Positions 5,629 through 21,990 of a DNA stretch of 25,916 nt are shown here, one piece after another. The first letter of the stretch is position 1. The number at the start of each line of letters is the position of its first letter. The translations under genes were made by a program, and so were the position numbers. The stretch is from Nitrospirota bacterium (GTDB lineage: Bacteria; Nitrospirota; Thermodesulfovibrionia; Thermodesulfovibrionales; Dissulfurispiraceae): NCBI GenBank assembly GCA_040754455.1, contig JBFMCP010000039.1, forward strand, positions 1-25,916, written 5' to 3'. The notes under the pieces are model-generated. The model had not been told where the DNA came from and did no database searches. It saw only the letters and a program-made list of their open reading frames with translations.

Positions 5629-6999
5629 ATGGATCAGCACGAGGTTTCGCGGAGAGAATTCCTGAAGGTGCTGGGTGCCGTTGTCGTAGCTGCACAACTC
5701 CCCTCCTCTTTCGCTGAGGTGTTTGCCCGGGATATCGGTGCGCTCGACCGCGTCTTCATTGCCAATGAGGATTCCAATACCATAAGCGTGATCAACCCCG
5801 CAAGCAACGTCATTGAGACCACGATCAACCTGACCAGTTTCGACGAAGACCCACGGCCTCCGTTCCGTTTCGTCACCGCAGGAGTGATGCCCACGCATGC
5901 CGCCATGATCCATAAACCACTCTATCACGGCTGCATTGACGCCCATGGGGTGGTGCCGTCTCCTGACGGACGCCTGCTGGCGACCTGCGGCAGGGGATCG
6001 GGCAATGTCTATCTGATCGATACCACGAACAAAAAAGTCATCGGCAATTCGCCGAATCCGTCAGCATCAGCTTCGACCAATGCCGAGCGGCTGACGAGCG
6101 GTATTCTGGTCGGGCGCGAGCCGCATGAGCCGACATTCACCAGAAACGGCAAAGAGCTCTGGATCGCCATTCGCGGAGAGAACAGGATCGCGATACTTGA
6201 TGTTGCCGGAGCGATCAAGCAGTCCGAAGGAGCGCGGGGGAGCTCGATCAAAAGGTATATAGGCACCGTAAACGGGCCCTCCCAGGTGTGGTTCAATGCG
6301 AAAGGCACCCTCGCCTTTGTCGCAAGCCAGAAAGCTTCCTTAATTGATGTATTCCGTGTGAATCCCAATGCCAAGGGATATTCCAATCCGACGCGGCTCT
6401 CTACTATCGATATCAGCCAGCAGGACAAGCCGGGCTTTACGCCGTTCCTCAAGACCGCTCCCGGCGGCACCGAGGTCTGGTTCTCCCACAAGCTGGCGGA
6501 CGCGGTATCAGGGCGCTCGACAACCGAGCCCTTTGCCCTGCTCGATGTCGTTGCGCTCGGCAACATGGCAAGGCCCAACCACTTCGAATTCGTCGAAAAC
6601 GCAAAAGGCAACGTTATGTATGTCAGTCTCGCACGGGTTGATGACAACGGCCCCGGCGGGGTGGCATCGAGCCAAATTGCGATCATCGACCGCAGCGCAG
6701 CACCGGGCAGTCGGAGGGTGGTCGGGACCTTCTTTTCTCACGGTCGCGAGGCGCACGGACTCTGGACAAACCCGGCAAACAATCTCCTCTATATCGCACA
6801 TGAACAGGACGAGCTGCCCGGCACGCCGAATGCCGGACAGACTGTGGCGAGCGCCTTCGACGTCTCCGATCCTTTCGCGCCGAAATTCATCGCCCAGATA
6901 CCGCTCGGCAGCCTCAAGCTCCCTTCGGGTGAATTAAGGAACAAAAAGAGCATCAACCTCGTTTATGTGCGCCCCGGCTATAAGGGACAGACGGCATAG
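5629..6999 (+). CDS. Tat-exported YncE/YVTN-like beta-propeller protein, His-rich
   Basis: Twin-arginine motif SRREFLK plus hydrophobic stretch; propeller blades (RVFIANEDSNTISVINP, HGVVPSPDGRLL, EPHEPTFTRNGKELWIA, GPSQVWFNAKG, EAHGLWTNP). Confidence 0.8.
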   Translation: MDQHEVSRREFLKVLGAVVVAAQLPSSFAEVFARDIGALDRVFIANEDSNTISVINPASNVIETTINLTSFDEDPRPPFRFVTAGVMPTHAAMIHKPLYHGCIDAHGVVPSPDGRLLATCGRGSGNVYLIDTTNKKVIGNSPNPSASASTNAERLTSGILVGREPHEPTFTRNGKELWIAIRGENRIAILDVAGAIKQSEGARGSSIKRYIGTVNGPSQVWFNAKGTLAFVASQKASLIDVFRVNPNAKGYSNPTRLSTIDISQQDKPGFTPFLKTAPGGTEVWFSHKLADAVSGRSTTEPFALLDVVALGNMARPNHFEFVENAKGNVMYVSLARVDDNGPGGVASSQIAIIDRSAAPGSRRVVGTFFSHGREAHGLWTNPANNLLYIAHEQDELPGTPNAGQTVASAFDVSDPFAPKFIAQIPLGSLKLPSGELRNKKSINLVYVRPGYKGQTA

Positions 7000-7009
7000 G
7001 GAGAAGATC

Positions 7010-7474
7010 ATGCGATATCTCTCTATCTTATTGCTCGGCGTGCTGCTCTCCAATGCAGTCTGGGCAGAGGACCATGCGCATCAGAAATCATCGCCCGCGC
7101 CGCAAAGTCCGGCGCCCGAACCGTTCCAAAAAGAGATGAACGAAGGTATGGAAAAGATGATGCACGATATGCACGCCCGGGGATACACAGGGAATCCCGA
7201 CATCGACTTCCTGAACATGATGATTCCCCACCACCAAGGCGCCATCGAGATGGCCCGGCTCGTCCTCGTCTACGGCCGCGATCCGATAACACGGATGCTC
7301 GCTGAAGAGATCATTGCAAGCCAGCAGGTCGAAATCGATGCAATGAAAAAACGTCTTTCCATCCTCCGCAGCCGAAAGGCTACCGACCCGGAAGAGTTCC
7401 CTGCTCTCGGCGGCACCCGGGGAAGAACGGAACCCAGCGACGGAGGACAGAAGACAGTACCGGAGAAACAGTGA
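7010..7474 (+). CDS. Secreted DUF305 / CopM-like Met/His-rich helical metal-binding protein
   Basis: Signal peptide; MNEGMEKMMHDMH; GNPDIDFLNMMIPHHQGAIEMA...LAEEIIASQQVEIDAM DUF305 signature; start ATG 7010 with a GGGAG SD. Confidence 0.85.
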   Translation: MRYLSILLLGVLLSNAVWAEDHAHQKSSPAPQSPAPEPFQKEMNEGMEKMMHDMHARGYTGNPDIDFLNMMIPHHQGAIEMARLVLVYGRDPITRMLAEEIIASQQVEIDAMKKRLSILRSRKATDPEEFPALGGTRGRTEPSDGGQKTVPEKQ

Positions 7475-7494
7475 TATATCCCTGAGGTGAGGAA

Positions 7495-7827
7495 ATGAAA
7501 ATCTGCTTATCTATTGTGGGCGCAGCAATAGTCTGTCTTATCCTCTTAACGTCTGGATGTTCGACAATAGAGAGGACCAATTGGAAGGTCATCCAGGAGG
7601 ATGCCTATCACAACACGTTTTCTTATGACCCGGGGAGCGTCGAACGTACATCTGCCGGCACTGTTACGGCAAGGGCAAGTTCCGACGGCTCGAAGTATCG
7701 GTACGAGATAGACTGCAAGGGTAAAAAGATGCGCATCCTCGAAGGCCACGGCGCTGACCCGGCGCGTTGGATTGCTATCGTGAGCGGCTCAGGGGACCAA
7801 CTCCTCTACAATGAAGTATGTCGATAG
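7495..7827 (+). CDS. Small hypothetical lipoprotein (surface-adhesin-E-like motif pattern)
   Basis: Lipobox LTSG-C; W...YDPGSV...YEIDC...W..I..GS....LYNEVC pattern; GAGG SD. Confidence 0.7.
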   Translation: MKICLSIVGAAIVCLILLTSGCSTIERTNWKVIQEDAYHNTFSYDPGSVERTSAGTVTARASSDGSKYRYEIDCKGKKMRILEGHGADPARWIAIVSGSGDQLLYNEVCR

Positions 7828-7891: not shown

Positions 7892-9199
7892 CTATTTCCT
7901 CCATACCCCCGCCCCCGGCTCGTAGCTGCAGAGCCAATGATGGGCATCTAGAGAACCCTTCCATTCAATGGTTCGAACCAGGCAGGCCCGACATCCGAGC
8001 CTGAATTCACAGGCCGAGCATGATGTGATGTCGTTTCGCGCTGTCGCAGCAAAACGATCGAAGAAACCTTGTCCGAGAATGGTAGCGAGGCTCTCCTCGG
8101 CAAGGCTAGCGACAGCGATCTTCCATCCCGGACAAGGTTTGACAGCGCCATCGGCGCCAATAAAGAGTGCGTTATAAAAACAGTGATGGCGCTGGCTGTT
8201 GATCATGAATTGCCTGAGATCCACGGCCATATCAGCAGGTCCCTGCGGGGCGACAACATTCCTGATATGCTCCGGGGTATGCTTTCCGGGAAGGCCGTAG
8301 ACAAGAAATTTAATCCCTACAGCCCCGTGGGATACAGCAAAATCCGCTGTGGCAATTGCCGCCTCTTCGCGACCGATCCGGGCAGGTATTTTTGCGGTAA
8401 ATGCCACGCCCCGGGAAGCAAAACGGCTGACTGCATTGAGCAGGGAATTATAGCCGGACGGGTGCCGTACTGCACGATTGAAGGCCCGCGTATTCGAGGC
8501 GGCAAAAGGCATGGCGATGCGCACATCAAAAGAGCAGAGGCGCTCTATCATTTCGCAATCGATTACTCCGGTCGTGTGCAGTTCGCTCTTCATTCCGAGA
8601 CGAGCGGCAAGCTCGAGGAGCTGCCAGAGCCTGTCCGCCTCTCTGAAAGGCTCACCGCCAGCAATAACCAGACGGTCAAAGCCGAGAGACCGGAGCAACT
8701 CGACACTCCGGACAATCCGCTCCATGGGGAGCATGGATATCTCTGTGTCGGTCTTCGGCGACACAAAACAGCCGCAGGGCTCGGCAGCAAGCGCACCTTT
8801 GGAAGCACACCATTCGCAATCATAAAGGCACTCCCTGGCAAGCTCGATCGTGACACTGCCCCCCTGGAAGTTAAATCCCTCTTTCTTGATCTGTGCATCG
8901 AGTGCCCAGGGCCGGTAGCCTTCTGTAGCAAAGGGATACGGCGCATACCGTCCGACATGCAGGCTGATCAATGCATCGATATACTGCCTGAGCTCATCAT
9001 ATCGAAGGTGGCTTCGCTCTGCCGCCTCCTCAATCGATCTTCCTTTAGCCAGGAGCGCCAGCGCTTCGGATATCTCCTGCCTGTTAAACCAGTAGAGCTT
9101 GCCGTCGAAAAGGTCGTGAACAACGGAACCATGCACGCCGCGGACAAACTGCGTATGCGGCAGAAACACAAAGTAATTATTGTTATCGGAATGGATCAT
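7892..9199 (-). CDS. Radical SAM/SPASM-domain protein 2 (putative peptide maturase or partner)
   Basis: CxxxCxxC (CLYDCEWC), AGGEP, SPASM C...IGADGAVKPC...CSACEFRLGCRAC...C; N-terminal beta-beta-beta-helix segment resembling a RiPP recognition element; start overlaps the upstream stop (TAATG). Confidence 0.85.
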   Translation of the reverse strand: MIHSDNNNYFVFLPHTQFVRGVHGSVVHDLFDGKLYWFNRQEISEALALLAKGRSIEEAAERSHLRYDELRQYIDALISLHVGRYAPYPFATEGYRPWALDAQIKKEGFNFQGGSVTIELARECLYDCEWCASKGALAAEPCGCFVSPKTDTEISMLPMERIVRSVELLRSLGFDRLVIAGGEPFREADRLWQLLELAARLGMKSELHTTGVIDCEMIERLCSFDVRIAMPFAASNTRAFNRAVRHPSGYNSLLNAVSRFASRGVAFTAKIPARIGREEAAIATADFAVSHGAVGIKFLVYGLPGKHTPEHIRNVVAPQGPADMAVDLRQFMINSQRHHCFYNALFIGADGAVKPCPGWKIAVASLAEESLATILGQGFFDRFAATARNDITSCSACEFRLGCRACLVRTIEWKGSLDAHHWLCSYEPGAGVWRK

Positions 9200-10773
9200 T
9201 ACCTGACATCCAGAAAACGGTAGCGGTCTACCAGAGGATCGCCGAAAGAGAGCGCATCCGGTACTTCTTCGAGAAGAGAATAGAGCGTGACCAGCTTATC
9301 AAGGACGACAGCGCGGGCAAAGCGGCACTGCTCCTCGGGGAAGCGAAACCCGCCGTCACGGCCGACATGCGCAAAGCAGAGATGGCACATACCGCGCGCC
9401 CAGCAGTTATTACAGGACGGCAGGGATGCAGCGTAGCGCCGCATCACCTCGTTGCACCGCTCCACATTGACCCCCTCATGAACAGAGCCTATCGGGAACT
9501 CCTCGGATATCCGCTCGCATATGTGGAAGGCACCGTCGGTAGACACGGTCAATCTCCTGCCCGGTTGACAGGTGCCTGTATAATGGCCCTGACATCCTCC
9601 ACCGAACTTCATGATCCGGCTATAGACGCCGATGAGTGATTCCTCAACGTAGTGATAGAGAAAAGAGCCCTCGGGCACAGGGATCTTATTACGCTTGCGG
9701 GTGAAATACTCATCCAAAATGCTGCTGTGCAGCTGTTGATAGCGGCGGGAGTCAAAAGGAAAAAACTTGTGAAAATCACCGGTCGCCAGATCTCGCAGAA
9801 TGTTCACGAAGGCGATTTGCGGGGCCCTTTGCCCTGGATCATCGAAGAAGCGCAAGATCGCCTCCAGGTCGGAATTCCCGTTGATCGTCACCAATGCCCG
9901 CACCTGCTCATTGAAGTATGCTTCGTCCAGAGAGCGGAGCAATTCCAGGTTGCGCCAGACTGCATCAAAAGTCCCCTTTCCCGAAGGGAAACGGCGATAG
10001 CGGTCGTGCTCGCTCGCTGGCCCATCGAGACTGCAGTTGATGCCGATGCGATTGCTCACGAGAAAATCGGCTGCCCTTTTCGTGAGCGAGGTAAGATTGC
10101 TCGTTACTGAAAAGTGCAGCTTGAAGCGGCCATCGTTCCGCGAGCAGGCATACCGGATGACCTCTTCCAGCATGTCGCTGCAGAGCAGAGGCTCCCCTCC
10201 GTAAAAACTTATATCGAGCTTGCGGTCCGGGATCGAGCGGAAGTAATCCGTATCATTGAGAGATAAGAAGATATCGATCGCCTTCCGTGCCGTCTCCCAG
10301 GACATAAATGATTTACCGAGAGGGCTGAAGCCTTGGTAAAGACCCGAATAGATGCAGTAATCGCAGCGCAGATTGCAGTCTTTCGTGAGCACGAGGATAA
10401 GATTGCTCAACGTGCTCGGGGCAGGTGTCCACTGGAGAGGCTGTGTACAGGAGCGTTCGCGATCATCCGTTGTTCCGGAAATGCGGCCCGGACAACCGCG
10501 GTGCGATGCGCCGAAGGCGCGGGCGGTACGGCGCCACTTAAGCATATACGCGCACAACGCTGAGACGCCGTTCTCTTCAGCGACAGCAGCCCTGAGCGCA
10601 TCATCGCAGTCCTCGTAGAGCGCAGCACATTGCTCCCCGGATACCGGTTGGAACAGGGGATGGGCAGTGAGCGTAGCGGCATCAAAGAGATACTGTGCGC
10701 CTGAACGGGTGGTAAAGATCAAAAAATGAGGATGCTCAAATACCGATGCATCCTTCGCAACCGGAGAATTCAT
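9199..10773 (-). CDS. Radical SAM/SPASM peptide maturase 1 (resembles CcpM / GG-Bacteroidales-type Cys-rich peptide maturases)
   Basis: LTKDCNLRCDYCIYSG (CxxxCxxC), SFYGGEPLL, TSNLT, SLDGP..EHDRYR, SPASM GTCQPG..L.VSTDG.FHICERI...IG...CNNCWARGMCHLC...C; N-terminal RRE-like region. Confidence 0.92.
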   Translation of the reverse strand: MNSPVAKDASVFEHPHFLIFTTRSGAQYLFDAATLTAHPLFQPVSGEQCAALYEDCDDALRAAVAEENGVSALCAYMLKWRRTARAFGASHRGCPGRISGTTDDRERSCTQPLQWTPAPSTLSNLILVLTKDCNLRCDYCIYSGLYQGFSPLGKSFMSWETARKAIDIFLSLNDTDYFRSIPDRKLDISFYGGEPLLCSDMLEEVIRYACSRNDGRFKLHFSVTSNLTSLTKRAADFLVSNRIGINCSLDGPASEHDRYRRFPSGKGTFDAVWRNLELLRSLDEAYFNEQVRALVTINGNSDLEAILRFFDDPGQRAPQIAFVNILRDLATGDFHKFFPFDSRRYQQLHSSILDEYFTRKRNKIPVPEGSFLYHYVEESLIGVYSRIMKFGGGCQGHYTGTCQPGRRLTVSTDGAFHICERISEEFPIGSVHEGVNVERCNEVMRRYAASLPSCNNCWARGMCHLCFAHVGRDGGFRFPEEQCRFARAVVLDKLVTLYSLLEEVPDALSFGDPLVDRYRFLDVR

Positions 10774-10801
10774 TCCGTATGCCGGTTATCCGCAGATACG
10801 G

Positions 10802-11293
10802 TTAAAACGCTTTTGCAGCATGGCCTGCTACGGCTCCGGTCGCTCCCAGCGCAGCAGTAAGGGTTGCAGCGCAGGCGCTGCAGAGAGCGCAGGCGGTACA
10901 GGCGGTACACAAGTCGCACTCTGCGACAGGGCCGAACTTGTCGACAATCTCTGACGGAAGCGCCGAGGAAAAGCCTGAATCTTTCAGAATCTTAATATAA
11001 ATCCTATAATAATCTGCGGGCTCGGGCTCTTTTTTCGCCATCAGTGCCATAACCTCTTTCTTTAGCTTCTCTTCATTCTTGCGGATTTCCTGATAGATGG
11101 CACGATCTATGCTGTTGGCAACTGTTCCCGTTTTTGTGAGCTTAACCAGTTTTCCAAGCGTTTCCTGTGCTGCTTTTTTTGCCGCCTTTGCTTGTTCAGG
11201 GGTGCTCTTTTTGCTCCGGTAGTCCTTCCCGAAATCCTCGACAACCTTAATTTTCTTTGCAGCAGCAGCCGGCAGCTTTTTTACCACTGGCAT
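10802..11293 (-). CDS. Putative RiPP precursor: long Lys-rich leader plus six-Cys (Cxx)6 core
   Basis: Strong SD AAGGAGG; first gene of the operon with two rSAM/SPASM genes; all six Cys at residues 126,129,132,135,138,141, followed by an Ala/Gly/Thr-rich tail. Confidence 0.8.
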   Translation of the reverse strand: MPVVKKLPAAAAKKIKVVEDFGKDYRSKKSTPEQAKAAKKAAQETLGKLVKLTKTGTVANSIDRAIYQEIRKNEEKLKKEVMALMAKKEPEPADYYRIYIKILKDSGFSSALPSEIVDKFGPVAECDLCTACTACALCSACAATLTAALGATGAVAGHAAKAF

Positions 11294-11494
11294 AGGATTT
11301 TCCTCCTTATCAATTGTTATAAGGAGTATTTAGCACAAAAAGTGAGGGAAGTCAAGCTGTTGTCACTCGATCCACTATCATCTTAAGAGAGGAGTGCCGA
11401 TCGCTGATATCAATTTAATCGATCATCTTAAAGAACGATCTCTTGAGTGATGGGCAGGTCTTGTCTTTTGAAAAAGTAAGTGAGGACATTTATC

Positions 11495-12607
11495 TTACCC
11501 CCATCGCAACTCCAGCGTATTGTCGTTACGCAGAGCCACTTGCGTTCCCAGTCTGCGCCCCTCTCTGTTCAAAACTTCATTCAGCCACAGCGCTTCCTCT
11601 TCCGATGCTCGGTTCACCCTAAAGCGCCGCATCCGTGTCGGTGTCATCCGTAGACGGACAAGCTTTCCGTTCAACGGATCAACGCTGGCGAAGTACATTA
11701 AGCTCAGGTCGCCCCTGAAGAATTCATAACCGCTGATGCCCTCGTAGTCGGTCAGGAAATCGCCGCAGCCGTAGAGGATGAGCTTGTTGCTGTATACTTC
11801 GATTCCCTTCACGTGATGGGAGGAATGTCCATGAACGACGTCAATGCCGGCGCTGTCGATCAGTGCATGGGCAAACGATCCCTGCTGGCGAGGGATATCA
11901 TAGCCCCAGTTGCTGCCCCAATGGATTGAGGCAATGACGATATCTCCCGGTTGCTTCATCTGCCGGACAATATAGTCGATGTCTTTCACCCTCTCAAACG
12001 AGAGATCGGGCAGAAAGTTCACGCCCGGTCTGTCTTTTGCGGCAGCCCATGTTTCGGGAATGCCGCTCGTTTCAGAGCCGAAGGAAAATACGACGACTCT
12101 TCCCTTGCCGGCAATCTCCTTTATTGCAGACGCTTCAGCCTCCCTTATAGTACGCCCTGCTCCCGCATACTGTATCCCTGCGCGCTGCAAGGTCTCGATC
12201 GTCTCAATGAGGCCCGGATATCCCCAGTCGAGAACATGGTTGTTGGCGAGTGCGCAGATGTCGATCTTTGCTGCGGTAATGCACGGAATGTTCCCGGGAT
12301 GCATTCGGTAATTGATGCCCTTGTCGAACCAATACTCGTCGCTCTTTGTTACAGCGGTCTCCAGATTGATAATTCTTGCATCCGGCGCTAACCGCTCCAG
12401 CTCATCAAAGGCCTCGCCCCAGATATAAGGGAAATCGACCGGCTTCTGAATCGGGCCGTTCACTTGCTCTGCAAGTTGTACGTAGATCCTTGCATCCCCT
12501 ACGTAAGGCTCGTAGAGCACCGGATCGCTCGGGTGGGGCAGCACCTGGTCGATGCCCCTCCCGGTCATCACATCACCGCACATGAATATAGTGATAGGGC
12601 CGGTCAT
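11495..12607 (-). CDS. CapA-family (poly-gamma-glutamate synthesis-like) metallophosphoesterase-fold protein
   Basis: GDVMTGRGI, INLE, LANNHVLDWG, SIHWG, VHGHSSHH, YGCGDF motifs; no signal peptide. Confidence 0.9.
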   Translation of the reverse strand: MTGPITIFMCGDVMTGRGIDQVLPHPSDPVLYEPYVGDARIYVQLAEQVNGPIQKPVDFPYIWGEAFDELERLAPDARIINLETAVTKSDEYWFDKGINYRMHPGNIPCITAAKIDICALANNHVLDWGYPGLIETIETLQRAGIQYAGAGRTIREAEASAIKEIAGKGRVVVFSFGSETSGIPETWAAAKDRPGVNFLPDLSFERVKDIDYIVRQMKQPGDIVIASIHWGSNWGYDIPRQQGSFAHALIDSAGIDVVHGHSSHHVKGIEVYSNKLILYGCGDFLTDYEGISGYEFFRGDLSLMYFASVDPLNGKLVRLRMTPTRMRRFRVNRASEEEALWLNEVLNREGRRLGTQVALRNDNTLELRWG

Positions 12608-12646: not shown

Positions 12647-14386
12647 CTATATATTTGTGAAACAGGCAGTTCCATTCCCATCAGCAATCTTCCAGATAAG
12701 CTCGAAATTGCAGATGATGACTAATGGATTGCCGGTTGCATCCTTCACGATCTGTCCGTTGCCGTCGGTGGCGAGGAGCAGGTCATTGGGCTTTAGTAAC
12801 GAGCCGTCATACCCCGCATTTCTGAGATTCTCTTTCACCTTGTCCAGCATCATCCGGCATTGCGCCTCATCGATAAGGCCCCGATCAACGGCCTTGGCAA
12901 GATCGACCGGCACATGGAGCGGGCCGACCTGCTCGGCGACCCAGTGGTCGGGGCCGTTGTAGTAGCCGCGAATGGTAATATAGTTGTGGTTCTCCTGCAG
13001 AATAGGATTGCCATCAGGATCCAGGATATTCTTATGTGATTCGTATCTCCTCAGGTCCGCCGATGCCTCAACCTTGGCAGTGCCGGTCATGTAGATCGCC
13101 CTTACATAGACGCAGGGGATGCCGAGCTGATTCAGCGTATGGGCAATGGCAAATTCTTCAAACGGGCTGTTGATGCCGAATTCGCGGATCTTTGCCGGAT
13201 GCTCCTCCTCGCTCTCCCCCGGCAGCTCGCCGACTCTCGAGGTCTCCCAGACGAGATGAATGTTATCCTTAGTGATGGTGTAGAAGACCTCCTTGTTTTC
13301 AGACAATCTGATGGAAGGGGTTTTCCTCCACCGCTCAGGAAGGAAGTAATCGAAGAGCCGTGCATTCTTGCCCACCACCCACAGATGCCCGCCGGTGCTT
13401 TCCGCATGACCGTAAATGTAGGGTACGCCGAAGATCTCCATGCTCGACAGATGGGGGGGCAGCGGCGTCGGAATAAAACGATCCCGCTGATCATCCAGAT
13501 AGGAATGGCGTCTGCAGCTCTTGACCTGCTCTTCGTGATCGGCGGTGCGGAGCAGGAGTTCATAATCGACGATTGAATATTTACCTGTGTTTATTACCTG
13601 ATACAAATGATCAATCTGATCCTTTGAGGGGTCGATTACGGGCATCTTTCCGATATCTTCAACGCGCTTTGCATCATCCTCACTGATAATGATATGCTCC
13701 GGCTTCATATCCGCCACCAGATATCCCTTTTTATCGAGATCGGCCATGACATGGCGATTGAGTTTTGACAGATGCAGGGTGCGTTCATCATCGTTGATAT
13801 CGATATGCCCGAAGACTTCCTTGAGATTATGCCCTTCGATCCATTCATAAATCATCTTGTACTGTTTGAGGATGTCGAGATCGATGCCGGGATGTTTTGC
13901 GTGAATACGGTTGATTCGGGCCTTCGATCTTCCGCTCTGCCATGGCTGCATCCTTTCGGGCGGCACATAGATTGCCAGGGGGCGCTGCGTATTTATTTTC
14001 AGCTCCCGCGGGCCGAGCCGGTTCTCCCGCATCTCCATAACCAGAGAGAACTCCTCCCAGGGGCTGTTGAATTCGGCATCGCAGAATTCCTGCAGCGTGT
14101 GGGTGTTGAGCGGAACGTCTTCGCCGACACGGCAGTTCTTGACAACAAGATCGAGGCTCTTGCCGTACACCTCCTTTGTCGGCAGCCGGTAGACGGAGCC
14201 GGTGCCCTCGAGCCTTACTTTGTGTCTGTTGAACCATTCTGCTTCATACCAGTTATTCGTTTCGAGATGCTCTTGGTACTTCTCGGCAAACCGGGTGAGA
14301 TAGAGATCACCGCCGTCGAGAGTTTTAAAGTGGGCATAGACGACCCCCAAGACATTGACGAGCGTTTTTCTGGAGGTTTTATGCAT
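12647..14386 (-). CDS. Hypothetical protein made of two tandem protein-kinase-like repeats (intact N-terminal, degenerate C-terminal)
   Basis: Repeat 1: EGTGSVY, LVVK, NSPWEEF, ADMKPEHIII, IVDYE. Repeat 2: LVWE, NSPFEEF, SLLKPNDLLL, ICNFE. Confidence 0.7.
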   Translation of the reverse strand: MHKTSRKTLVNVLGVVYAHFKTLDGGDLYLTRFAEKYQEHLETNNWYEAEWFNRHKVRLEGTGSVYRLPTKEVYGKSLDLVVKNCRVGEDVPLNTHTLQEFCDAEFNSPWEEFSLVMEMRENRLGPRELKINTQRPLAIYVPPERMQPWQSGRSKARINRIHAKHPGIDLDILKQYKMIYEWIEGHNLKEVFGHIDINDDERTLHLSKLNRHVMADLDKKGYLVADMKPEHIIISEDDAKRVEDIGKMPVIDPSKDQIDHLYQVINTGKYSIVDYELLLRTADHEEQVKSCRRHSYLDDQRDRFIPTPLPPHLSSMEIFGVPYIYGHAESTGGHLWVVGKNARLFDYFLPERWRKTPSIRLSENKEVFYTITKDNIHLVWETSRVGELPGESEEEHPAKIREFGINSPFEEFAIAHTLNQLGIPCVYVRAIYMTGTAKVEASADLRRYESHKNILDPDGNPILQENHNYITIRGYYNGPDHWVAEQVGPLHVPVDLAKAVDRGLIDEAQCRMMLDKVKENLRNAGYDGSLLKPNDLLLATDGNGQIVKDATGNPLVIICNFELIWKIADGNGTACFTNI

Positions 14387-19434: not shown

Positions 19435-21549
19435 TTACCGCAACAACCTCGAAGAATTCAGGAAGACGAGGACATCGGGCATGACATGGGCCACCGCTGC
19501 CATTGCAGGGGAAAGGATACCCACCGAGGCAAGGCTTATCCCGACCACGTTGAAGAGGATGCCAAGGGTAAGGTTCTGTTTTATGACCTTGAAGGTATTC
19601 CTTCCGATCCTGACCGCTTCGGGGATCTGCTTCCACTCATCGCGCATGAGCGCCACATGGGATGCCTCAATCGCTGCGCCCGAGCCTACCGCACCCATGG
19701 CAATGCCCACATGCGCCTGGGCAAGGGCAGGGGCATCGTTAATGCCGTCGCCAATCATGAGGACGTATTTCCCTGCCGCGGCGAGCTCTCTTACCCTAGC
19801 AACCTTATCTTCGGGAAGCAGTTGGGCCATGAACTTCTTGATGCCGAGCGTTGATGCGATCACCTGTGCGGTCCTCGGATTGTCGCCGGTGAGCATAATC
19901 GGATCAGCAAAGCCGAGCCCCTTCAGCTCATCTATTGCCTCAATCGTACCCTCACGGATGATATCGGCAACACTGATCGCTCCGCAGATAACATTTTTAT
20001 GGGCCAAAAGCAGAACGGTATTCCCCTCTGCTTCTTTCGTTTCGAGGTAGCCCTCGACTTCAGGGGTGATCATTATATCCTTATCTCTGAGCAGCTCCCG
20101 GCTGCCCAACACTATTCGCTCTCCTTCGATGACTGCCTCAATGCCTTTGCCGGGAATGACCTTGTAGTCATCGGGATCAGGAGCTTCGATGCCCATATCC
20201 ACCGCCTTCTTGAGGATCGCTTTTGCAAGGGGGTGCTCCGAATACCGTTCAGCACCAGCGGCGTAGGCCAGTATCTTCTCGTTGCTGCAGCCGAAGCCCT
20301 TCACTTCGGTGACGATGGGGTCGCCGAGCGTGAGTGTGCCGGTCTTGTCCATTACCAGGGTATCGACCTTTGCGAGAGATTCGAGGTGAAGTCCGCCTTT
20401 GATAATGATCCCCCTTTTGGCCGCCTTGCCCATGCTCGCCACCATCGCCAAAGGTGTCGCTATGGCAACGGTGCAGGGACAGGCGACAACGAGCACCGCT
20501 ATCGAGTAGGTGATATTTCTTGTCGCAATAAATACGAGAACGGCAATGGTGAGAATGGCAGGAGTGAAGTAGGCGGCAAACCGGTCGGCCACTCTCTGCA
20601 CCTTGGCTTTGGAGGACTCAGCCTCCTCGACGAGCTTGATGATGCGCGCGTAGGTCGTATCTTCCCCGGTGTGGGTCACCTTTATGAAGAGGATGCCGAG
20701 CTGATTGATGGTGGCAGCATAGACCTGGTCGCCCTCTCTCTTTTCGACAGGGATCGATTCACCGGTGATCGGCGCCTGATTTACTGACCCCCTGCCCGAG
20801 ATAATGATGCCTTCAACGGGTATCTTTTCTCCTGCCTTGACCACCACCACATCGCCGCGCCTCACCTCTTCTACCGGCACCTCTACTTCATAGTTGCCTC
20901 TCTTTACCCGCGCGGTTTTCGGCGCCAGCTCTATCAATTCTTTGATGGCCTTCCGGGAGCGCTCCATGGTAAAGGAGTCAAGGAGCTCGGCAATGAGCAT
21001 GAAAAAGGCGATGATTCCTGCAGAACGGATCTCTCCGATCGCCGTCGATGCGATAACGCCCAGGGACATGAAGACATCGGCGGTGATCGCCTTTTCCCTG
21101 AGGTCGGCAACGGCATGCCTCACCAGCGGGTAGCCGCCGATGAGCACCGCCAGAATGGAAAAGAGATCAAAAGGAATTTTGAAGAATCTTTCTGATAGCG
21201 CCGTATAACTGAGAAGGAGGAGGAGTAATACCACACCGATTCTGGTAAGCTCAAAACTCCACTCATGGGTCAAGAGGCGCTCGAGAAACGTCTTTTGGCC
21301 CGGAGCCTTTTCTTCCGAAGCGATCTTGAATCCCAATCCGGTAATACTACTGATTATCGATTTCTCATTAATGACCGAGGGATCGAAACGGATGTCGATC
21401 TTTCTCGTGCTCAGATAGATCGTAACGCTCTTTACACCATTGTGACGCATAAGCGCCTTTTCAGCCTTTTCCGCACAACTAGCGCAATCCAATCCGCCGA
21501 CCTGAAGGCTGAGGACCTTTACGTTCCCTTCTGAAGCTGCTCTATTCAT
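19435..21549 (-). CDS. Heavy-metal-translocating P1B-type ATPase (CadA/ZntA-like)
   Basis: HMA domain GLDCASC, ITGES, CPC in TM6, DKTGT, SEHPLA, TGDN, GDGINDAPAL; overlaps the regulator's 3' end. Confidence 0.95.
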   Translation of the reverse strand: MNRAASEGNVKVLSLQVGGLDCASCAEKAEKALMRHNGVKSVTIYLSTRKIDIRFDPSVINEKSIISSITGLGFKIASEEKAPGQKTFLERLLTHEWSFELTRIGVVLLLLLLSYTALSERFFKIPFDLFSILAVLIGGYPLVRHAVADLREKAITADVFMSLGVIASTAIGEIRSAGIIAFFMLIAELLDSFTMERSRKAIKELIELAPKTARVKRGNYEVEVPVEEVRRGDVVVVKAGEKIPVEGIIISGRGSVNQAPITGESIPVEKREGDQVYAATINQLGILFIKVTHTGEDTTYARIIKLVEEAESSKAKVQRVADRFAAYFTPAILTIAVLVFIATRNITYSIAVLVVACPCTVAIATPLAMVASMGKAAKRGIIIKGGLHLESLAKVDTLVMDKTGTLTLGDPIVTEVKGFGCSNEKILAYAAGAERYSEHPLAKAILKKAVDMGIEAPDPDDYKVIPGKGIEAVIEGERIVLGSRELLRDKDIMITPEVEGYLETKEAEGNTVLLLAHKNVICGAISVADIIREGTIEAIDELKGLGFADPIMLTGDNPRTAQVIASTLGIKKFMAQLLPEDKVARVRELAAAGKYVLMIGDGINDAPALAQAHVGIAMGAVGSGAAIEASHVALMRDEWKQIPEAVRIGRNTFKVIKQNLTLGILFNVVGISLASVGILSPAMAAVAHVMPDVLVFLNSSRLLR

Positions 21550-21946
21550 CTTCCTCTATATGCCTCAAACATTCGTTGAATAAGTGATTTATATGTTCAT
21601 CATCAAGAGAATAAAATATCATCTTTCCCTCTTTTCTGTACTTGACCAGCCGCATGTTTCTCAATACCCTCAATTGGTGGGAGACTGCAGAACGAGTAGT
21701 AGTGAGCAGCGTAGCAATATCACAGACGCAGAGCTCTTCGAGGGAGAGGGCATAGATGATTTTTGTCCTCGTCGGATCCCCAAGCACTCTGAAGGTCTCG
21801 GCAATCCTCTGCATGGAGTCCTCAGGCTTCATCCTTTTCTTGACTGAGGCGACCTTTCTCACGTCAACACAGGTAGTCTCGCAAATCTCAGCCGTGCGCC
21901 GTCTGCCCGATCGCTCACGATTTCCGGTCTTTGTTGAAACAGCCAT
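21542..21946 (-). CDS. ArsR/SmtB-family metal-sensing repressor (CadC/ZiaR-like)
   Basis: N-terminal CxxxC (CETTC), ELCVCDI alpha3 site, SAVSHQLRVL HTH, alpha5 site DEHI...HIEE; SD GGAGGAG before ATG 21946. Confidence 0.93.
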   Translation of the reverse strand: MAVSTKTGNRERSGRRRTAEICETTCVDVRKVASVKKRMKPEDSMQRIAETFRVLGDPTRTKIIYALSLEELCVCDIATLLTTTRSAVSHQLRVLRNMRLVKYRKEGKMIFYSLDDEHINHLFNECLRHIEEDE

Positions 21947-21958
21947 ACTCCTCCTTCC

Positions 21959-21990
21959 AACAATTGAATAATTGTTCAATTGTTATTATA
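21959..21990 (-). promoter_or_regulatory. ArsR/SmtB 12-2-12 operator adjacent to a perfect -10 box
   Basis: AACAATTGAATA-AT-TGTTCAATTGTT (21959-21984, one mismatch, TGAA core); TATAAT on the minus strand at 21990-21985; possible -35 TTTACT at 22014-22009. Confidence 0.85.

Follow-up and report, generated by a model that had tools for sequence, protein, structure and literature searches.

Thurincin H of Bacillus thuringiensis is a type I nested-hairpin sactipeptide, in which thioether links join C4 to S28, C7 to T25, C10 to T22 and C13 to N19 (PMC8172795). These links define a donor arm of period 3 and an acceptor arm, each 10 residues long, with a turn of 5 residues between them. In the case of thuricin CD, both TrnC and TrnD are needed for sactionine formation, and the two enzymes form a tight complex (PMC12093266). 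The characterised sactipeptides described in PMC8172795 and PMC8188230 are products of Bacillota, none with more than four bridges. Short-leader peptides with a (Cxx)n core and Ala/Val/Gly-rich tails (PNR89132.1, SHH35794.1) are entered as predicted sactipeptide singletons, RODEO class 'Hypervariable/Other Sacti', in the spreadsheet supplement of Precord et al. 2023 (PMC10288494), and for this reason the (Cxx)n core type is not wholly unseen. In this study we analysed a 25,916-nt stretch of DNA (the window) of a Nitrospirota bacterium (assembly GCA_040754455.1, contig JBFMCP010000039.1), which contains a three-gene module comprised of a gene for a long Cys-rich precursor and two genes for radical S-adenosylmethionine (rSAM)/SPASM enzymes, designated here enzyme 1 and enzyme 2. 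On balance, we favour the view that this module directs the formation of a thioether-laddered RiPP (a peptide made by the ribosome and modified after translation), with a long helical leader or carrier, a nested ladder of six (most likely sactionine) rungs, and a second enzyme acting on the same substrate. The genes and their parts are as follows:

11302-11308, minus strand: Shine-Dalgarno (SD) box AAGGAGG, read from the sequence, 8 nt ahead of the precursor ATG
10802-11293, minus strand: precursor gene, an open reading frame (ORF) of 163 aa, stop codon included in the coordinates
10931-11293, minus strand: residues 1-121 of the precursor, its N-terminal domain, a predicted helical bundle
10871-10918, minus strand: Cys run CDLCTACTACALCSAC (residues 126-141), of the form (Cxx)5C, with six Cys at period 3
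10805-10870, minus strand: tail AATLTAALGATGAVAGHAAKAF (residues 142-163; 22 residues), the proposed acceptor arm of the hairpin
9199-10773, minus strand: gene of rSAM/SPASM enzyme 1, an ORF of 524 aa; proposed thioether synthase
10354-10377, minus strand: CxxxCxxC of enzyme 1 (C133, C137, C140), invariant across all 13 sequences of the alignment
9325-9570, minus strand: SPASM-type seven-Cys region of enzyme 1 (C402, C419, C454, C457, C463, C466, C483), all invariant
7892-9199, minus strand: gene of rSAM/SPASM enzyme 2, an ORF of 435 aa; predicted second maturase
8963-9175, minus strand: N-terminal region of enzyme 2 resembling a RiPP recognition element (RRE; residues 9-79), modelled as four strands followed by three helices with an AlphaFold2 predicted local distance difference test (pLDDT) score of 52-89
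8807-8830, minus strand: CxxxCxxC of enzyme 2 (C124, C128, C131), invariant in 6 of 6 sequences
7928-8182, minus strand: SPASM seven-Cys region of enzyme 2 (C340, C356, C394, C397, C403, C406, C424), invariant

The precursor stop codon is separated from the ATG of enzyme 1 by a 28-nt gap, and the genes of enzymes 1 and 2 overlap in TAATG; the enzyme 2 gene is translationally coupled. An earlier note, made on the same DNA without database searches, had drawn attention to three tightly linked minus-strand genes with a strong SD box and these two junctions, to the placement of all six Cys of the precursor in one C-terminal run, and to CxxxCxxC, GGEP and SPASM Cys motifs in both enzymes. The gene arrangement and the run (residues 126-141) can be read directly in the sequence, and the motifs could be assigned positions in alignments: the GGE of enzyme 1 (G192-E194) is present in 13 of 13 rows of its clade and the next Pro (P195) in at least 90% of them, and the GGEP of enzyme 2 (G181-P184) is kept in a six-row alignment. 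A hairpin in the gap between the precursor and enzyme 1 genes was not significant (z -1.57; 15 of 200 shuffled sequences fold equally well), and scans for promoters and terminators gave results near chance.

A comparison of the precursor with Pfam and NCBIfam (release 20) at E<=1 revealed no family and only three chance-level NCBIfam rows, which excludes the SCIFF, NHLP, Nif11, CLI_3235 and GG-Bacteroidales precursor models; the earlier note had likewise been unable to place the precursor in any of these types. A word-based homologue search identified one relative, an 88%-identical hypothetical protein of a Nitrospirota metagenome-assembled genome (MAG), whose core differs at a single tail position. 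When 1.84 billion cluster representatives were searched exhaustively with HMMER (E<=1e-3), 32 proteins were obtained, including the query. P0158, a repeat protein of 356 aa among these matches, proved unrelated when read and was dropped. The search provided 30 further cluster representatives of the precursor family, with lengths of 157-235 aa.

The members of this family share a common plan: a hydrophilic N-terminal part is joined by a linker of variable sequence to a (Cxx)n-C run, in which there are 4-8 Cys, and a hydrophobic Gly/Ala/Val/Thr tail follows, which often ends in an aromatic residue. The period-3 Cys run is kept in all 32 aligned members; C132, C135 and C138 are invariant, and C126, C129 and C141 each occur in 90% or more of the rows. 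The consensus of the N-terminal part contains recurring motifs around NPID and P-x-DYY-x-x-Y-x-K-V-L-x-DSG, with Y96 present in at least 90% of the rows. No conserved Gly-Gly site runs through the family alignment. Judged by these alignments, the precursor family is real and conserved.

The AlphaFold2 model based on the 32-row alignment predicts that residues 9-120 form a helical bundle (helices 9-26, 32-49, 61-72, 74-86, 92-105 and 114-120), with pLDDT values of 82-91 for blocks 11-110. The 'leader' of the precursor is thus predicted to be a folded helical domain and not a floppy leader. Foldseek comparison of this model returned generic helical bundles only, with no PDB match of E <0.6, and in the ESM Atlas nothing above the chance range was found for the precursor. 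The 38-residue core (residues 126-163), composed of the Cys run and the Gly/Ala/Thr tail, is almost uncharged; across the family, the median core contains one charged residue.

A perfect 9-nt tandem repeat (2.2 copies; 10890-10909) is located inside the Cys run and codes for repeated C-T-A units. Slippage of such 9-nt units would alter the number of Cys by one rung per step.

A detailed inspection of the C-terminal parts revealed a length rule. The tail following the last Cys is exactly 3n+4 residues long in 21 of the 32 members, where n counts the Cys of the run and, in three members, also an off-register Cys immediately upstream of it. The members with exact matches are as follows:

n = 4, tail of 16 residues: 1 member
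n = 5, tail of 19 residues: 1 member
n = 6, tail of 22 residues: 12 members
n = 7, tail of 25 residues: 7 members

The window precursor follows the rule (22 = 3x6+4). One member has a tail of 3n+3 residues, and none of the 32 has a shorter one. When the tails were permuted among the members (10,000 trials), the number of exact matches averaged 8.6 and reached a maximum of 17, compared with the 21 observed. On a tree constructed from the N-terminal domain only, n changes at least 4-7 times, and therefore the rule is not one inherited accident. Since a run of n Cys comprises 3n-2 residues, a tail of 3n+4 residues equals the run plus six. The tail is periodic in its composition: the fractions of Gly at its three phases are 0.35, 0.31 and 0.05, and those of Thr are 0.05, 0.03 and 0.29. 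By analogy, the modal layout of the family corresponds to the geometry of thurincin H, either with n rungs and one leftover residue, or with a 6-residue turn and the last residue acting as an acceptor.

Enzyme 1 is an rSAM maturase with a CxxxCxxC motif and a SPASM-type auxiliary-cluster region, and is encoded beside a Cys-bearing precursor. It passes the cut-off of Pfam Radical_SAM and does not pass that of Pfam SPASM. Its top NCBIfam rows are maturases of Cys peptides or thioether maturases:

CcpM: 215.2 bits, cut-off 500, E 1.7e-63
RumMC (NF035951): 183.8 bits, cut-off 720, E 5e-54
GG-Bacteroidales maturase (GG_samocin, TIGR04148): 166.6 bits, cut-off 300
lachnocin maturase: 156 bits, cut-off 550
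PapB: 142.5 bits, cut-off 340, E 1.7e-41
QhpD: 130.4 bits, cut-off 453, E 7e-38
Nif11-type maturase: 120 bits, cut-off 519
SCIFF maturase (TIGR03974): 95.3 bits, cut-off 425, E 4e-27

The tests against the SCIFF, PapB and GG-Bacteroidales maturase models and the CcpM and QhpD equivalogs all gave scores below the cut-off, as did both sactisynthase models (RumMC, 183.8 vs 720; GggB, 45.7 vs 650). The closest solved relative of enzyme 1 is CteB (5wgg), which was found with an E value of 3e-18 using the single sequence and 5.7e-38 using the family profile. The alignment of the two proteins spans the rSAM core and the SPASM region, and does not extend over the first ~100 residues.

Enzyme 2 passes the Pfam Radical_SAM cut-off and scores 25.3 bits against Pfam SPASM (cut-off 21.5). 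Its best NCBIfam row reaches 41 bits, the match being with a grasp-with-spasm maturase in its SPASM part, and six relatives were obtained in a word-based search, of which five have 35-74% identity and one has 21%. In the AlphaFold2 model of enzyme 2 (mean pLDDT 64) an rSAM barrel follows N-terminal strands and helices, and Foldseek aligned this model over 400-450 columns with SuiB (1e-12), TigE (2e-11), SkfB (8e-11), EpeE (4e-9) and CteB (6e-9). Because of the predicted model and the full-length alignments to SuiB, TigE and CteB, the protein appears to have the architecture of a RiPP maturase (RRE-rSAM-SPASM). The model thus presents enzyme 2 as a distant member of the RRE-rSAM-SPASM maturases. 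Neither enzyme matched PqqD of Pfam. Of the RRE-like N-termini that the earlier note had ascribed to both enzymes, that of enzyme 2 is indicated by the moderate-confidence model and its Foldseek alignment, and that of enzyme 1 (residues 1-118) is putative.

A profile comparison of the two enzymes aligned only the rSAM core (18% identity, probability 19%), and their N-termini show no similarity (hhalign probability 0.2%).

Ten residues past its CxxxCxxC, enzyme 2 contains a C-x-C (C142, C144; 8765-8773) that is invariant in 6 of 6 relatives and could constitute an extra ligand pair.

A genome scan with the alignment of the enzyme 1 clade and rSAM patterns identified at least 79 loci, whose six-frame ORFs were searched with local hidden Markov models; these loci include neither the genome from which the window comes nor the Nitrospirota MAG. 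Of the loci listed, only L001 contains a member of the precursor family. This locus, from a Deltaproteobacteria MAG, encodes an enzyme 1 homologue of 46% identity, and its precursor and two enzyme genes are ordered as in the window, although the genes on either side differ. Enzyme 1 groups with L001 and 12 or 13 metagenomic proteins in a clade of 100% support (FastTree with 90 rows; a quick IQ-TREE run with 36 of them). A neighbour clade of four short-leader relatives received 97-98% support; the joining of the two clades is supported at 80% in IQ-TREE and is unresolved in FastTree. The four relatives, with the scores of their matches to the enzyme 2 profile and the Cys spacing of their short periodic-Cys peptides, are:

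L002, 239-5710 (TA06): 128 bits; spacing 4
L019, 56-2903 (Patulibacter, Actinomycetota): 112 bits; spacing mainly 2
L022, 7454-10285 (Acetatifactor, Bacillota): 37 bits; spacing 3, with nine Cys
L066, 7641-12192 (Eubacterium ruminantium, Bacillota): 62 bits; spacing 4

Gly/Ala/Ser-rich tails follow the Cys runs in L002, L022 and L066, and an ABC transporter adjoins the L002 system directly downstream. Within the 18-row group formed by these sequences (twelve rows being protein-only), both enzymes are encoded beside a periodic-Cys peptide in 6 of the 6 loci for which DNA is available, which answers in the affirmative the question, raised in the earlier note, of whether homologous enzyme pairs co-occur with Cys-rich ORFs. 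Most of the other listed loci are from Bacillota and are CcpM-like, with one enzyme and a short Cys-rich peptide of the MKKLGKK type.

Enzyme-1-like genes are located beside peptides with a period-2 CxCxCxC pattern in L062 (95-400; Thermoflexales MAG) and L015 (766-1071; uncultured bacterium). The enzyme 1 group may handle several Cys periodicities.

The scores of enzyme 1 to thioether maturases, its relationship with CteB and the co-occurrence with periodic-Cys peptides speak for a thioether RiPP cluster, as the earlier note had proposed from its reading of the genes. On the observed genes, motifs, family, length rule and synteny we base a scheme whose thioether chemistry, ladder topology, role for enzyme 2, and steps of cleavage and export we infer from sequence comparisons: (i) the soluble helical N-terminal domain would serve as a very long leader or carrier, (ii) enzyme 1 would remove hydrogen atoms from residues of the tail, which it would then link to Cys sulfurs, (iii) the product would be a nested hairpin ladder with six thioether (most likely sactionine, S-C-alpha) rungs and a 5- or 6-residue turn, in which C141, C138, C135, C132, C129 and C126 are paired with residues 147, 150, 153, 156, 159 and 162, respectively, or with partners shifted by +1, and (iv) enzyme 2 would act on the same substrate, either working with enzyme 1 as TrnC and TrnD do, or adding a second modification. 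Going by the analogy with thurincin H, the precursor probably acquires six nested bridges of the sactionine type. A more far-reaching version of this scheme, which we consider doubtful, would see in the ~120-aa folded domain a carrier and not a disposable leader, in the 4-8-rung ladders (tail equal to the Cys run plus six) the most bridged structures of the sactionine type yet seen, in the two unrelated rSAM/SPASM enzymes a heteromeric pair, and in the product a soluble helical protein whose C-terminus is a hydrophobic hairpin stapled by thioethers, made in Gram-negative lineages without a characterised sactipeptide.

Several observations weigh against the laddered RiPP. Eleven of the 32 family members deviate from 3n+4, ten of them by longer tails. 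The acceptor register is not fixed by the data, because phases 0 and 1 of the tail both hold small residues. The core has a pLDDT below 50 in the AlphaFold2 model, and the 19-residue Kyte-Doolittle maximum is at least 1.6 in 29 of 32 cores, so that the core could be a membrane segment. Enzyme 1 falls below every curated NCBIfam cut-off, and its exact reaction is therefore not transferable; its enzyme group also includes formers of non-alpha thioethers (ranthipeptide maturases, QhpD). On sequence comparison, enzymes 1 and 2 are not recent paralogues, unlike pairs of the TrnC/TrnD type, which are paralogues. In addition, the patterns used in the genome scan were generic rSAM ones, the long-leader family was seen as DNA at two loci only, and no protease or exporter gene lies next to the three genes in the window.

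The flanks of the module contain housekeeping and metal homeostasis genes, encoding RpoD, GreA, an aminotransferase, CopM/DUF305, PGA_cap, phosphoenolpyruvate carboxykinase, MoeB, tryptophanyl-tRNA synthetase, a P-type ATPase with ArsR, UbiX and ferrochelatase. The following are described in more detail:

5629-7827, plus strand: probable copper-handling trio: a YVTN beta-propeller protein whose N-terminus is twin-arginine-like, a metallochaperone of the CopM/DUF305 type (94.5 bits, cut-off 90) and a protein of 110 aa with a lipoprotein-like start
11495-12607, minus strand: PGA_cap/CapA-family protein, directly upstream of the module on the same strand; a terminator-like hairpin follows the gene
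12647-14386, minus strand: 579-aa protein, matched to no family of Pfam or NCBIfam
19435-21979, minus strand: heavy-metal P-type ATPase with an HMA domain, with a gene for an ArsR-family regulator before it

The PGA_cap neighbour scored 57 bits (cut-off 700) against MslH, the epimerase of the C-terminal Trp of a lasso peptide. It was set aside as a part of the system, given that the MslH match is at family level and the gene is not beside the L001 cluster. The Atlas clusters of the 579-aa protein (0.97-0.99) are unnamed and are commonest in Nitrospirota and Verrucomicrobiota; rows at a greater distance (0.93-0.94) point to Kdo/WaaP-type kinases. The non-Firmicute host suspected in the earlier note agrees both with this distribution and with the origin of the nearest named relative of the precursor from a Nitrospirota MAG.

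The helical N-terminal domain, which in the favoured scheme acts as a leader or carrier, could instead be the functional or soluble part of a ~160-aa protein that stays whole, its cross-linked C-terminus forming a stapled membrane anchor or hairpin by protein-level maturation of the QhpC/QhpD kind. We regard this as rather unlikely. It would account for the confidently predicted bundle (pLDDT 82-91) with conserved motifs, for the lack of a protease, an exporter or a conserved double-Gly site in the window and in L001, and for the membrane-like, nearly uncharged core; enzyme 1 also scores 130 bits against QhpD. However, L002, a related short-leader system, has its ABC transporter directly downstream, long folded leaders that are cut off do exist in RiPPs (NHLP, Nif11), and the 16-residue tail of the n = 4 member is short for a membrane span. 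The nature of the links raises another alternative, namely a thioether RiPP of the ranthipeptide type or of some other topology, in which the Cys would be linked to beta or gamma carbons (those of Thr at period 3, for example), or to residues in the run or adjoining it. PapB, QhpD and the SCIFF maturase make non-alpha thioethers, and enzyme 1 scores against all three (143, 130 and 95 bits, respectively), has CteB as its best solved relative, and is encoded beside a family in which Thr is enriched at one tail phase (0.29, vs 0.05 and 0.03). Against this, the window tail offers three Thr for six Cys and consists mostly of Ala and Gly, with little or no side chain, a tail equal to the run plus six suits full-length antiparallel pairing, and RumMC, a sactisynthase model, outscores PapB, QhpD and SCIFF for enzyme 1. 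We regard this alternative as improbable.

The least likely of the rivals, and in our opinion a very improbable one, treats the precursor as a small membrane protein whose Cys run binds a metal or a cluster and is not modified by the two rSAM enzymes. Repeated CxxC is a common metal-binding spacing and copper-related genes (CopM, P-type ATPase, ArsR) are present elsewhere in the window, but these metal genes are neither adjacent to the module nor found in L001, whereas the three genes of the module show translational coupling and keep their synteny in a second phylum. A metal site also gives the tail-length rule no reason to hold, and the related enzyme pairs adjoin other periodic-Cys peptides.

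Full-text searches of the literature yielded no description of the precursor family, and none of seven motifs taken from its long N-terminal domain occurs in the spreadsheet supplement of PMC10288494, whose (Cxx)n singletons have short leaders, unlike the long N-terminal domain of the window precursor. The precursor family and the paired-enzyme module are undescribed so far, and vary the theme of the thioether rSAM RiPPs. If the laddered RiPP is correct, Nitrospirota and Deltaproteobacteria would be added to the range of sactipeptide chemistry, the number of bridges would rise to between six and eight, and the carrier would be the size of a protein. From the length rule one obtains an exact and cheap prediction of the linked residues and of the scaling of the rungs, and the system is thus a good test bed for radical SAM action on a periodic substrate. 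Enzyme 2, with its handful of detectable relatives, is a candidate for a reaction, or for a role as partner, that would be new.

Several described systems share individual traits with the module. The models that score best with enzyme 1, aligning over nearly the full length, are those of CcpM/CLI_3235 (TIGR04068) and RumMC; however, enzyme 1 remains below their cut-offs and is placed in its own clade with 100% support, and the precursor has no match. The SCIFF/CteB system resembles it in the six-Cys precursor and in CteB, an rSAM enzyme with an RRE and two auxiliary clusters that is the closest solved structure to enzyme 1. It differs in that the maturase model is below cut-off for enzyme 1 and no SCIFF precursor match was found; SCIFF peptides are ~45 aa long and have irregular Cys spacing. 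With NHLP and Nif11 precursors the module shares a protein-sized N-terminal part placed before a short modified core, but there is neither a sequence match of the precursor nor a conserved Gly-Gly site. Thuricin CD also involves two rSAM enzymes, yet it has two precursors with a Cys spacing of 4, whereas the window system has one precursor and enzymes that are 18% identical in the rSAM core.

The likeness to thurincin H/ThnB is one of layout: a donor arm with period-3 Cys, a short turn, an acceptor arm that is as long as the donor arm and abounds in Thr, Ala, Gly and Ser, and rSAM/SPASM maturation (PMC8172795). Thurincin H has four rungs, a 40-aa precursor and one rSAM enzyme, and its cluster includes a protease and an ABC transporter (PMC8172795). 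The window system lacks a protease or exporter nearby, occurs in Nitrospirota and Deltaproteobacteria hosts, and combines six predicted rungs (4-8 in the family) with a folded N-terminal domain of ~120 aa and two unrelated rSAM enzymes.

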